Positions 1,785 to 37,511 of a DNA stretch of 64,000 nucleotides are shown piece by piece. The DNA is taken from contig NC_134468.1 in the NCBI RefSeq assembly GCF_964194025.1, positions 68,386,001-68,450,000 on the forward strand, given 5' to 3'. The translations under genes were made by a program, and so were the position numbers. The first letter of the stretch is position 1, and the number at the start of each line of letters is the position of its first letter. The notes below the pieces were generated by a model. That model searched no databases and had not been told where the DNA came from. It saw only the letters and a program-made list of their open reading frames with translations. This DNA comes from Convolutriloba macropyga. Its lineage: Eukaryota.

Positions 1785-1912
1785 TGTAACACGTATATAA
1801 AAAAAATGTACGAAAAACCTTGGGTTTCAAGGTTCAAGATTTAATTTAAAACTTGATTTATTACCTGATTTTTGGCTGACACAACTTTGATAGGTGTCAG
1901 AAATGAAAATAG
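1785..1912 (+). repeat. 5' LTR, truncated (joined directly to an RT fragment)
   Basis: 1785-1912 aligns by eye with 36228-36240 plus 37086-37200 (shared GGTTTCAAGG, TTTAAAACTTGATTTATTACCTGA, TGGCTGACACAA). Confidence 0.75.
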
Positions 1913-2455
1913 ATGGCTCTAGATGACGTTATCGTTTTGGGAAGAAATTTTGACGAACATCTGAAACTGGCTTTCAAACGTTTAGCGGAGAATGGAGTAA
2001 ATATTAAGGGATCAAAATGCAATTTTTTTCCAAAAACGTGTAAGCTTCTTGATGCACATTGTATCCGAGAAAGGAGACGAGTTCAACCCAGAGAAAGTAA
2101 GAGCGGTAGAAAGAACGAAAGGACCATCATCCCTGAAGGATGTCAGGGCCTTTCTAGGCCTTGCGGGCTATTATCGGAAATTTGTTCTGGGTTTCGGAAA
2201 AACAGCAGAACCTGTTTACAGTTTACTGAATAAGTTGAATAAGTAAAATAAAATTAAATGGAGTACAGAGCGCAAAAATGAGGTAACCGAGTTTAAAAAG
2301 AAGCTTTGGACGCCCAGTTTTAGGATATCCAAACGATAGGGACCCGTATACATTAACTACGGATGCTTCATTGACAGGAATTGGAGCAGATCTTACCCAA
2401 AAGCAAGGAACGGAGAACAGAGTTATTGCATATGCTAGCAAAACTCTGAGTAAAA
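1913..2455 (+). pseudogene. pol: Gypsy RT C-terminus / RNase H N-terminus fragment
   Basis: LDDVIVLG, PEKVRAV, DVRAFLGLAGYYRKFV, YTLTTDASLTGIGA, VIAYASKTL; frameshifted. Confidence 0.9.
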
Positions 2456-2594
2456 GACTTAAAATACAATATTGAACTTCGAATTTTTTGATTTCATGTA
2501 AAAAAAAAACAGTTTCAATAAGATTCAAAGCTGCTGAGTTAGAGTGTCGAATAGTAGTTCGGTTTTTGAACATAATTTTTGAAATAATTTGAAA

Positions 2595-3648
2595 AACAGC
2601 AGCTTTTAAATAAAATACTGATGGCGCGGCACTCCGCAAAAACGCTGTTAATGGAGCCTTTTACGAGTTCGAATGATTTCGAAATTTTTGTTTCTTTCTT
2701 TGAGCTTTTGTCACAACTTCAGAAGTGGCAAAGAAAAAAAAACAGTAAACGGCGCCAACAATGAAATTGATGAACGGCCGCATTATTTTGCATTAAGGCT
2801 ACAAAAAACGGCTATTGATTTTTATCGTGCACTTTTGGAGGACACTAGGAAGAACTATGATGAGACTGTAAAAGTTTTCAGACAACATTAAAATGAGAAC
2901 CCTATTGTTTTCCGGTAGGCTAGCTAGGAGAGTCCAGCAGCCGGGTGAAAAAATAACAGAGTTTCTCCGTGATTTGCAAACTTTAGCATTGAAAGCGTAC
3001 CCTCAGGAGTCTATTGAGATAAGAGAACATCTCGTTTTGAGGGGATTCCTCGAAAGCTTAGAAAATGGTCTGGTGCGACTCGACCTGAGAAAGAACTTGG
3101 GTGACGCGGATATGACTTTAGACAAAGCTTTTGAAAGAGCACTACATATTGAAGCTGTCACGAGAATTGAGGAGGAGGACAATGAGCAGCGAGTTTCTGC
3201 CATCCAGTCGAATGAAAACACTCATTAGTTAGTTCGATTAACGATTTAGTGCGAACACTGCAGATTAACCAATCTAACTTGCAAGATAATCCAAAGTGGT
3301 CATCGCAAGAAGCGAGGCCAAAAGTATCTGCGCAGAAGTGAGAGTAGTTCAAGAGGAACCTGCGATAGAAATAGAAACTATAATAGCTATAACAGAGGCA
3401 GCGCTGATAATAGACGAACGAATTACGACAAGAGAGCGCGATCGCCAACACCAGGAGGCAAGAACAGATGCCAAGATCGGTCGCATGAGAGTCGTGCCGA
3501 GCAGTCAAAGACAACGTTGAATTTTGAGAGAAAAAATGTCGCCGTGCGCTGTCAGCGAAATCATGCACCTAAGGAATGCGAGAATTGTTTTGAATGTGGG
3601 AGTCCAAATGAATTCAAACAAAATTGCCCGTATTTAAACGACAACTAG
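2595..3648 (+). pseudogene. gag: Gypsy gag with C-terminal zinc-knuckle remnants
   Basis: RVQQPGEKITEFLRDLQTLALKAYP and MTLDKAFERALHIEAV (retrotransposon gag-like), an R/S/N-rich linker, and CFECGSPNEFKQNCP (degenerate CX2CX4HX4C) at ~3585-3630. Confidence 0.8.
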
Positions 3649-3709
3649 CTTAAAATGGCAGTGCTTCATTTTCAGCTAGCTTTGTAAAAACTGTGGCTGA
3701 AACAGCCCA

Positions 3710-4060
3710 GTGGAGGCCTTGTTTGCAAAAATAATGATAAAAGACAAACTGATAATGGCCTTAATTGATAGTGAAATTAGTGTTAATCTTCTAAACGACA
3801 ACCTCTACCAGCAACTGGGAGAAACGAGCCACCTCAGAGTGTTCAATAAAAATATAATAGCTGCCAAAAAATGGAAAAATGCCTGTAAAAGGGTCAACAG
3901 CTATTCAGGTCCAACTTCAAAAGTTTTCATCTGAGATAACAGTTGAGTTTCTAGTGACCAAAATTGAGATAACGCTTTGTTTATTGGGCATTTAATTCTT
4001 ATATAATTTTGACTGTATTTTATAACCCCGAAAAAGCAAACACTTTTGCGGGACAATAGG
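3710..4060 (+). pseudogene. Gypsy aspartic protease, degenerate
   Basis: IMALIDSEISVNLL (degenerate LIDSG motif) and a downstream CLLG-type segment, located between gag and RT. Confidence 0.7.
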
Positions 4061-5620
4061 GAAGACATTACAATTGTCCCCATCACAACGATGTAAAAAG
4101 AATCTGTTTTTAATTGCTGCTGAGGATCACGAATTACTTCGTCGCTGCGCAGGTTTCAATAAATGCAAAATTGTCGATGAAGAAGGTATTATAACACAGC
4201 AAACAAAAATTATAGTCGAACCTATGAAAGAGTTTGATGACAAATCACATTTATTAATAGCGAGATTGCTGATTGACATGGTTCATGATGTTGCATGGGT
4301 TCAAGTTCTGGGCCCTACATTAGAACCAAAGAATTTTTTCAAAAATGCGAGAATCGCATGTGGTGAAAACATTGAAAAAATTTCAAGAGCACAACAAAAT
4401 AACCCTGACAATAATAGTAAACATAGAGATGAATTTGATTTTGAGAAGCATGTGAACGCATGTTCAATGAGCTTTTTTGTGAGGAAATGACAAAAGTGAG
4501 GTCACTTTGCGCAAAATATGAAGTAATATCTTCAAATGATATGGGCGAAATTCAATTGATATGGGATTTTGCGACCGAATTTATGATTAAAAAAACTAAA
4601 AAAGGATGCTGTGCTATTCAGACGTACATACGGCAGCATGCGTTTTGAGAAAAGAAAAGCCATGAAAAATATTGTTGAGGACTTGGAACGTGATGACTTA
4701 GTCGAACCAACACATTCCGACTGGGCAGCACCATCAATAATTTTACCAAAAATGATGGAACCTATCGCTTGGTTGTAGACTATCGTGGTATGAACAGACA
4801 AATAGAAAAAACATGCTGTCCTTTACCACCAATTAATGGGGTTATTGATTCACTGGAGGGAAACATGTACTTCACGAACATAGATCTTGTGTCGAGGTAC
4901 TTTCAGATGGCGAACGAGGACGAGAGTCAGAATTTAAGAGACTTTATTACGCTTCTGGGCTTTTATAAGTAGAAAAGACTCCCTGTGGGACAAGCGTCTG
5001 CTCCGGGTGCTTTTCAAAACCTAGTTTAGTTCATTTTTGCTGGCTTCTCTTTAGAAATGGCTCTAGTGTATCTAGATGACGTTATAGTTTTGGGAAGAAA
5101 TTTTGACCAACATCTGAAACGATTAGAACTGGCTTTCAAACGTTTAGCGGAGAATGGAGTAAAGATTAAGGGACCAAAATGCAATTTTTTTCCAAAAGCG
5201 TGTCAGCTTCTTGATGCACATTTTATCCGAGAGTGGAGACGAGTTCGACCCAGAGAAAATAAGAGCGGTAGAAAGAATGAAAGAACCATCATCCCTGAAG
5301 GATGTCAGGGCCTTTCTAGGCCTTGCGGCCTATTATCGGAAATTTGTTCTTGGTTTCGGAAAAACAGCAGAACCTCTTTACAGTTTACTGAATAAGTTGA
5401 ATAAGTAAAATAAATTTAAATGGTGTTTAAAGGGCAAAAAATGCGGTAACCGAGTTTAAAAAGAAGCTTTTAGACGCCACAGTTTTAGGATATCAAAACG
5501 ATAGAGATCCGTATACATTAACTACGGATGCTTCGTTGACAGGAATTGGAGCAGATCTTGCCCAAAAGCAAGGAACGGAGAATACAGGTATTGCATACGC
5601 TAGCAAAACTCTGAGTAAAA
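4060..5620 (+). pseudogene. pol: Gypsy PR-RT linker, reverse transcriptase and RNase H N-terminus
   Basis: VEPTHSDWAAP, VVDYRGMN, PLPPINGVIDSL, FTNIDLVSRYFQ, YLDDVIV, FLGLAAYYRKFV, TTDAS; many stops and frameshifts. Confidence 0.92.
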
Positions 5621-36100: not shown

Positions 36101-36214
36101 TTAAACTGTCCACATGAATCTACATACTTTTTGTAAAGCAAGACGTTCATATAAATTGAACTGTGAAGGAAAAAATTGTTTGATTTTGAGTGAGTGGTGC
36201 ACTCTATTCTTGTT

Positions 36215-36224
36215 AAGAGGGGGG
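36215..36224 (+). promoter_or_regulatory. Polypurine tract of the LTR element
   Basis: AAGAGGGGGG three bases before the TG start of the 3' LTR. Confidence 0.75.
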
Positions 36225-36227
36225 CAC

Positions 36228-36239
36228 TGTCACACGTAT

Positions 36240-36270
<31 letters not shown>

Positions 36271-37511
36271 GGGATATTCTTTACAGAAGGGATTTCTCCC
36301 GATCAAAACAGTTATAGAAAATTAGTCCATGTCACTCTGCAGTGTTGACAGTCACAACAGATCTGCCACGCGCAGACGTTTTCTGGTTTGTACCGCATCA
36401 CGATATCATTCCACATTTGCTTTAAAATTCTGTGTTTTAGGCTGTGTTGATTTCCGAAATCAATGCTGTGATGATGTCTGTTGGCTGTCCTTTGGGTGCG
36501 AAAGAAGAATTCGCCGCAAGATTTTTCGAGTCGTTTTTTTTATTAAGTCAAACAGTCGTCTCTTCTCATTGATCTGTTTCCAGGCAGCACCGGCTGTTTA
36601 GTATTTGTTGGTTGAGTTTGTTGGAAACTTGATAGTAGTAGAAGATCATTGAGCTGATAGTACATTGGCAAGGGTAATAGATCTGACAAACGTAGTTTTT
36701 CGATGTAAATCAGTGTATTGCCATTTGTTATCCAGGACACAACCTTTCGTTGAAACCGTTCCAAGTTTCGCATATCTCCTCGGTTTAATTTACAGCACGA
36801 GGATCCGTACATTAGAACTGGCAGAATCATCGATTTATAAAGTCCCAGTTTGATGCGCATATTAAATTTAAAGGCTACATTTCTTCTCAGGGAATAGAAG
36901 ACTCAGTTAGTTTTTTTCATTCTTTCTTCTAAGTGGATTTTCCAAGTCTAATCGGATTGTATCCGATTCATTAAGTCCTTTACACCAGCTGAGGTTTGGA
37001 GGAGACTTCCACACAGGTAGAAGTGGCTTTCTGGACCTTTGAACAAAACGTTGGCGCACTTTTAACAAAACTTTGGCGCGTTTTAATATAAAAAAGATGC
37101 ACTAAAACCATTGGTTTCAAGGCTAAAGAATTAGTTTAAAACTTGATTTATTACCTGAATTATGGCTGACACAAGTTTGATAGGATTCAGAAAAGAAAAT
37201 GGACCTGTGATTAGACAAAGCGCGGGCTTCGAGCGAATTCAACGAAACTGATATATCTTTGTTGACTTGGTTAATTTACCACGATGATAGAACCGATATT
37301 GGTTACCGACCAAAGCGAGGATTGAATTCATTCATTGAACACCAAGCTTACCATCACAGCTAACTAGTCTATCAAATCCTAATCTATTCAAACCAATTTT
37401 CTTCACCTTAATCTACTTAACAATTTAACTTCTAACTTCGCATTTTAACCAAGTACCACGCTCAATTTGCCAAAGAACGTAGGGTATTGCGCACGGGCGG
37501 CTACCATAACA
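36228..37511 (+). repeat. 3' LTR, interrupted after ~13 bp by a LINE (resumes ~37086)
   Basis: TGTCACACGTATA|LINE|TATAAAAAAGATG matches the uninterrupted 5' LTR start. The end at ...CCATAACA is tentative. Confidence 0.7.
36241..37085 (-). mobile_element. 5'-truncated non-LTR retrotransposon (CR1/L2-like) with (AAC)n tail
   Basis: KLGLYKSMILPVLMYGS...LERFQRKVVSWI...LLPLPMY (post-RT domain), C-terminal WQICCDCQHC, and (GTT)n at 36241-36270. Confidence 0.85.

Follow-up and report, generated by a model that had tools for sequence, protein, structure and literature searches.

A J-domain accessory gene under purifying selection in envelope-bearing Ty3/gypsy elements of Convolutriloba macropyga

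Positions 1779-37508 of the window analysed here, a 64,000-nucleotide stretch of the Convolutriloba macropyga genome (contig NC_134468.1, 68,386,001 to 68,450,000), are a single long terminal repeat (LTR) element, dead and heavily rearranged, with a 4-bp target duplication, ACAG. As a sequence-only reading of this DNA had proposed, it is a decayed copy of a Ty3/gypsy element; it belongs to a family with four open reading frames (ORFs), the last of which, ORF4, encodes an SH3-like N domain (~55 aa), a coiled coil and a C-terminal J-domain with an HPD motif. More importantly, ORF4 is under purifying selection in all three of its parts. The J-domain gene is apparently an undescribed accessory gene, selected and of predicted function.

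Results

Selection on ORF4 was estimated by the Nei-Gojobori method from codons compared pair by pair among natural copies, ignoring stops and any codon with a gap; the pairs have a common reference and cannot be taken as independent. Between the window copy and a young copy, the ratio of nonsynonymous to synonymous divergence (dN/dS) is 0.15 for the whole of ORF4 (bootstrap 0.10-0.22), with values of 0.21 for the N domain, 0.16 for the coiled coil and 0.08 for the J-domain, and the same pair gives 0.22 for reverse transcriptase (RT) and 0.32 for env. These values bear out the purifying selection on the J-domain gene that had earlier been named as a check. Three further copies of the old subfamily give 0.13-0.22 for ORF4, and in family B, a relative described below, comparisons of older with young copies yield 0.17-0.30 in the five diverged pairs of six and 0.40 in the closest. 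Five close pairs have higher ratios, 0.43-0.65 with intervals reaching 1 in four of them, as expected from decay after insertion. In family A, constraint extends to the 13-14 codons upstream of the first methionine (dN/dS 0.03-0.21), so translation likely begins upstream of it, by splicing or at a non-AUG start. In 8/9 env and ORF4 starts the ATG is preceded, at a distance of no more than about 20 nt, by an acceptor-like T-rich stretch with AG.

In the window copy ORF4 (35182-36080, plus strand) is broken, with four stops in aligned codons and three frames in use, and its J-domain (35883-36080, HPD at 35958-35966) matches Pfam DnaJ at 9.7e-15. The coiled coil and DnaJ domain first read there are both confirmed; the SH3-like N domain and the related families had been missed. 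The layout is that of a class C J-protein, a J-domain with HPD and without G/F and zinc-finger regions, and the DnaJ match is above the Pfam cut-off in families A and B. In PDB the J-domain of a family-A copy is closest to those of the class A/B proteins Sis1 and DNAJA1 (E about 1e-11), and it also matches that of polyomavirus large T antigen (1gh6, E=7e-4). HPD does not vary across families A, B and H, and 36/39 family-A and 32/41 family-B matches retain it, some of their stretches overlapping. The 14 host J-domains compared are 30-38% identical to that of ORF4, the best at 37-38%; neither the donor nor a close counterpart was found among them, and a DnaJ from a JGI record outscores the best of them, against family A only. 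Helix II is less basic than in canonical J-proteins.

The N domain has no Pfam, PDB-sequence or Atlas match. Aligned by hhalign with the GPY/F-type C-terminal integrase region of 79 motif-selected pol proteins, it gives a probability of 84% and P=7e-6, and three control regions gave P values of 0.17-0.28. In the reverse search, the three ORF4 N domains ranked first among nine proteins.

ORF4 is linked to the rest of the element in other copies of family A, to which the window copy belongs as a member of an older subfamily. The window J-domain, used as a query, returned 1071 candidates in the 1.18-Gb assembly; 150 were scored, at 77-89% identity with the query itself excluded. A first sample of 20 family-A copies was selected for a long open J frame, and most of these read LTR-gag (351 aa)-pol (~1400 aa)-env (677 aa stop to stop)-palindrome array-ORF4 (308 aa)-polypurine tract (PPT)-LTR, a layout that spans ~9.4 kb in other copies of this genome; several are internal deletions in which env is partly or wholly gone. 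A second sample consisted of 20 integrase matches picked by eye for having no listed J match close downstream. Env was present in 20/20, and the J-domain lay on the same strand in 16/20, on the opposite strand in 2/20 and nowhere within the stretch in 2/20. Absence of env or the J-domain from other copies of the same LTR family had been named beforehand as evidence against the sequence-only reading; both are present. The LTR pairs of eight family-A copies are 93-100% identical, showing that the family moved recently.

Individual copies record further rearrangement. One locus (L022, 7056-9082 in element orientation) is reduced to LTR-ORF4-LTR, ~2 kb long with its own target duplication, and another (L013) is a deletion derivative without env whose LTRs are identical. 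When the window segment 35182-37508 is compared with copy L015 of the young subfamily, ORF4 has a synonymous divergence of 0.89 and gag, integrase and env one of 0.31-0.34, and LTR identity is 74% compared with ~83% inside the element; the higher ORF4 divergence and the lower LTR identity suggest that the 3' end was swapped between subfamilies.

Three related families, A, B and H, whose RTs are 75-78% identical, carry a J-bearing ORF4. In a set of 20 integrase matches, 71-78% identical and chosen because their open frames were long, 20/20 have env together with a J-domain match (two partial) in the same place; 19 of these copies belong to family B and one to family H. The family-B env is 30% identical to that of A, and its ORF4 has 283 aa and the motif HPDKGG; ORF4 is open in 10 copies of the 20-copy family-B sample and env in 6. 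Family B has LTRs of 617 bp with TAT...ACA ends (L107 3400-3420, L038 7870-8490), those of A and C being TGT...ATA, and all have 4-bp duplications; gag and pol share one frame in B and occupy overlapping frames in A.

In an RT-RNase H tree of 18 rows, one group (99/96) holds A, B, H and the database protein P0060; P0068 is its sister, and families C and D, in which the fourth ORF lacks a J-domain, fall in the sister clade. The closest named homologues are gypsy-type pol proteins at 45-48% identity, and the trees hold neither curated reference lineages nor a BEL/Pao outgroup. Among the families examined the J-domain is confined to one RT clade, a distribution that would fit one gain of the J-bearing gene, or its loss in C and D. 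The latter families are active, with LTR pairs 96.8-100% identical in six copies. Family C is very young, and ~38 copies with a 684-aa open env frame are among its best matches.

In every family examined ORF4 or its counterpart lies directly 3' of env; the distant env families E and F have a coiled-coil ORF there. In four other env families (L093 8462-9451, L097 8319-9539, L076 7517-9349, L074 1401-2252) the product of the fourth ORF, 284-611 aa long and without a Pfam match, combines a coiled coil with a disordered region. We considered whether the fourth ORFs of C, D, E and F form one gene family with ORF4 of A, B and H, and rejected this (best P for homology, 0.07). In a family with an 898-aa env (L073-L075), ~3.5-4 kb between pol and env hold no long ORF.

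Relatives also occur in other public data. Searching 1.84 billion representatives with an N-domain profile brought up 84 proteins, many of which look like decayed copies, and 41 of them are less than 56% identical to A, B and H. Five from public assemblies (P0258, P0260, P0287, P0309, P0315) have the layout N domain-coiled coil-HPD J-domain at 28-35% identity. Neither P0068 nor P0258 has a close match in the C. macropyga genome. The clusters of P0309 and of the pol protein P0060 both include contigs of 9213 and 6614 bp, which suggests that the two belong to one element from another source. No ORF4 relative was found in IMG/VR, and JGI metagenomes yielded two short contigs with env only.

The envelope gene, ORF3 (32961-34829, plus strand), is broken by stops and frameshifts in the window; in natural copies it encodes 666 aa from the ATG. 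Its product is predicted to be of the chuvirus/gB (glycoprotein B) type, as first proposed: PF24664, the Monjiviricetes/chuvirus-type fusion protein, matches env of families A, B and C at 41.6, 52.7 and 71.6 bits, above the cut-off of 27. Six cysteines are invariant across nine envs. ORF3 also has hydrophobic ends and 5-6 sequons for N-glycosylation, and it lacks an R-x-K/R-R site. At the hydropathy threshold used, both end segments are called in C, the N-terminal one alone in A and the C-terminal one alone in B. A PDB profile search with the nine envs gave no match, and the AlphaFold model (predicted local distance difference test, pLDDT, 37) is too low in confidence to be used for a gB fold. 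Chary and Hayashi (eLife 2026, PMC13524379) report that gB-type env is abundant and occurs widely among Ty3/gypsy elements, and that the chuvirus-like glycoprotein is structurally similar to gB. Because gB-type env in Ty3/gypsy is already published there, our env is of a described kind and not new, and the earlier view of it as unusual in Gypsy and mostly a BEL/Pao trait is not supported.

The layout LTR-gag-protease-RT-RNase H-integrase-env-palindromes-coiled coil/DnaJ-PPT-LTR read from the window was recovered with tblastn, using the proteins of natural copies, and Pfam. The pol order protease-RT-RNase H-integrase is that of Ty3/gypsy (Metaviridae), both in a natural copy and on the window map. 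A BEL/Pao element with a chuvirus glycoprotein was considered and rejected on gag/pol: the Pfam families of the natural copy are gypsy-type (RT_RNaseH, Integrase_H2C2, rve, Integrase_p58_C), none Pao-specific. ACAG stands at 1775-1778 and again at 37509-37512 and, since it flanks both sides, 1779 and 37508 are the two ends of one insertion; the previous ends, 1785 and 37511, correctly enclosed one element but were a few bases off. Among eight family-A copies with both ends, the 4-bp duplication is exact in five, has one mismatch in one and is unmatched in two. Self-comparison aligns 1795-1913 with 37086-37203 (85.7% over 119 nt), and the same sequence is the LTR start in other copies, which confirms that the end repeats 1785-1912/37086-37200 belong to the element. 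LTRs of other family-A copies are ~430 bp, TGT...ATA, of which the window 5' LTR keeps the first 135 bp (1779-1913). A sequence resembling a primer-binding site, TGGCGACAGAGATT, lies one base past the 5' LTR in families A and B; other copies have the primer-binding-site-like TGGCGAC after the 5' LTR and a PPT before the 3' LTR. A guessed tRNA pattern gave no match for the priming tRNA.

On the plus strand, the 5' LTR remnant is followed by a duplicated RT-RNase H fragment (1918-2456), a broken gag (2624-3645; CCHC knuckles in natural copies), broken pol from protease through RT to the start of RNase H (3573-5621), tandem duplications of ~1966 bp that join the gag start to RT and are 90-93% alike (5621-10268), and broken pol comprising RT, RNase H and the N-terminal part of integrase (10273-12036). 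Beyond a nested insertion (12037-31106) come the C-terminal part of integrase with an acidic pol tail (31107-31940) and an 819-nt tandem duplication (96%) of the pol tail and env start (31782-33406). Between env and ORF4 is an array of short palindromes with core TCTTGAGnTCAAGA (34905-35155). This array is specific to family A, with 2-11 units in 20/20 copies; a single copy from each of the families B, C, D and H has none. The PPT is at 36215-36224, so that both extra ORFs lie 5' of it, as had been claimed. The 3' LTR is split into its start (36228-36240) and remainder (37086-37508).

The insertion within integrase is Polinton/Maverick-like, ~19 kb long, with AGTAGT-type ends and a 6-bp flanking duplication, GATGGC (12031-12036, 31107-31112). 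Pfam detects rve (1.9e-8) and an adenoviral protease (0.007) in it, and it carries a putative polB recognised by motifs, with no Pfam match. Its terminal repeats hold a 29-bp repeat array, and stretches of 402 bp and 1880 bp are tandemly duplicated inside it. The left end is rearranged: 100 bp of terminus are followed by an inverted copy of the right end, which brings along 470 bp of the adjoining integrase of the host element. This inverted copy of the C-terminal integrase part lies at 12139-12608. The 3' LTR is interrupted on the minus strand (36241-37085) by a 5'-truncated non-LTR insertion with a (CAA)n tail, presumably related to long interspersed nuclear elements by its putative RT C-terminal motifs, with no Pfam match. 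Elsewhere in the window, a glutamate synthase-like host gene has its first exon at 40398-40703 (GATase_2, E=1.8e-20), 2.9 kb beyond the 3' LTR, and 58423-64000 holds a 2-kb and a 0.7-kb repeated block, 86-94% alike.

Discussion

We propose that ORF4 may act as an adaptor that recruits Hsp70 of the host to the particle or integration complex of the element itself, the most likely of the readings weighed here, to which we assign a probability of roughly 0.4. Hsp70 recruitment and the potential infectivity suggested by the sequence-only reading are predicted properties. Env and ORF4 would be made from spliced subgenomic RNAs, and ORF4, soluble and dimerised by its coiled coil, would bind the element's nucleic acid or proteins through an N domain resembling the C-terminal part of integrase; the J-domain would then stimulate Hsp70 for assembly, uncoating or disassembly of the element complex. 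The J-domains of T antigen and auxilin have a comparable Hsp70 action on their own targets. In a broader form, to which we would give slightly less than even odds, an env-bearing Ty3/gypsy clade in more than one host carries a co-chaperone composed of a duplicated integrase C-terminal domain, a coiled coil and a captured J-domain, made from a second spliced RNA, which remodels the capsid or integration complex or disarms silencing. Several observations weigh against the adaptor proposal. The SH3 assignment is moderate, with an N-domain pLDDT of 58 and no Foldseek match at E<=0.001. Most family-A copies lack an in-frame ATG before the conserved N domain (it is in frame in L018 among 30 starts), so that expression of ORF4 hangs on a putative splice or a non-AUG start. 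Finally, C and D transpose without a J-domain, showing that such elements do not need one.

A somewhat unlikely alternative is counter-defence, in which the N domain binds a silencing factor (Piwi/Argonaute or chromatin) and the J-domain disables it via Hsp70 or soaks up the Hsp70 used for small-RNA loading. Four tyrosines of the N domain, Y9, Y11, Y12 and Y28, are invariant, which would suit this function. The aromatic cage of Tudor- or chromo-like domains is built of such residues, and chromo and Tudor domains are among the weak, non-significant Foldseek rows. Env-less copies with an open ORF4 have moved recently, as the identical LTRs of L013 indicate, although these copies are a biased set, picked for open ORF4. 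A host J-protein, SILENZIO, acts in plant transposon silencing (PMC8616336). However, the N domain shows significant similarity to the C-terminal domain of integrase alone, and the low dN/dS of ORF4 between subfamilies (0.13-0.22) lacks the fast change expected of a surface in conflict with the host. It is also conceivable, but quite unlikely, that ORF4 resembles a matrix or accessory protein and recruits Hsp70 on the cytosolic side for Env trafficking, budding or entry. Its position directly behind env, shared by the coiled-coil ORF of E and F, speaks for such a role, whereas neither a signal peptide nor any hydrophobic or membrane segment is present in ORF4, and C and D carry a related env without a J-domain.

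Two further readings dispense with Hsp70. The J fold might have been kept as a structural or binding module after Hsp70 engagement was lost, as the low identity to host J-domains and the less basic helix II would allow; we find this very doubtful, since HPD never varies in A, B and H and also occurs in all five divergent relatives, while more than 60% of the flanking residues differ. That ORF4 is a neutral host gene fragment or an unrelated repeat carried by one copy could be suspected from the window alone, where the element is broken and full of unrelated insertions. This is barely tenable and is refuted by the selection on ORF4 and by its linkage to the element, in the same position in three families and on the same strand in 16/20 integrase-picked copies; nor is any close host J-domain present among the 14 compared.

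Retroelements borrow host chaperones. An Hsp70 adaptor of their own, kept through deep divergence, would point to a step of the cycle that is limited by chaperone targeting, whether assembly, uncoating, post-integration release or escape from silencing, and one genome offers a natural comparison between the J-bearing families A, B and H and their J-less sisters C and D. Accessory genes, which surveys of gag, pol and env leave unrecorded, can also make env-carrying elements of invertebrates 'complex', as our results show. If the broader form of the proposal is true, these elements would be complex invertebrate retroviruses with a T-antigen-like accessory protein.

A literature search turned up no LTR element described as having a J-domain gene; most subscription journals and Repbase entries lay outside its scope, so that an earlier mention is possible. 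The term 'DnaJ' is absent from PMC13524379 with its seven text supplements, PMC5408684 and PMC10309623. With the 'ancient errantiviruses' of HSV (herpes simplex virus)/gB type described in the first of these, the present families share GAG-POL-ENV order, Ty3/gypsy pol, a chuvirus/gB-type env with putative signal and membrane segments, a furin site that is not always present, and several near-identical copies per genome; they differ in having a fourth ORF behind env. LTR retrotransposons of bdelloid rotifers carry additional ORF3s (DEDDy, GDSL, coiled-coil (CC), transmembrane (TM)), but these are third ORFs, whereas here the accessory gene follows env, and no DnaJ or chaperone is mentioned in the accessible portion of that paper (PMC5408684). 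Another comparison is CERV of the C. elegans element Cer1, a soluble Ty3/gypsy accessory protein made from a spliced mRNA with its 3' exon before the LTR and needed for Cer1's own cycle in RNA export (PMC10309623); ORF4 would resemble it in this, and the domains are others, with no J-domain or SH3 mentioned in the accessible text. Polyomavirus large T antigen shares a virus-encoded J-domain with HPD. In that protein the J-domain directs Hsc70 to a chosen complex. T antigen belongs to a DNA virus and has its J-domain at the N terminus, whereas the J-domain of ORF4 is C-terminal and nearer to those of the cellular proteins Sis1 and DNAJA1.

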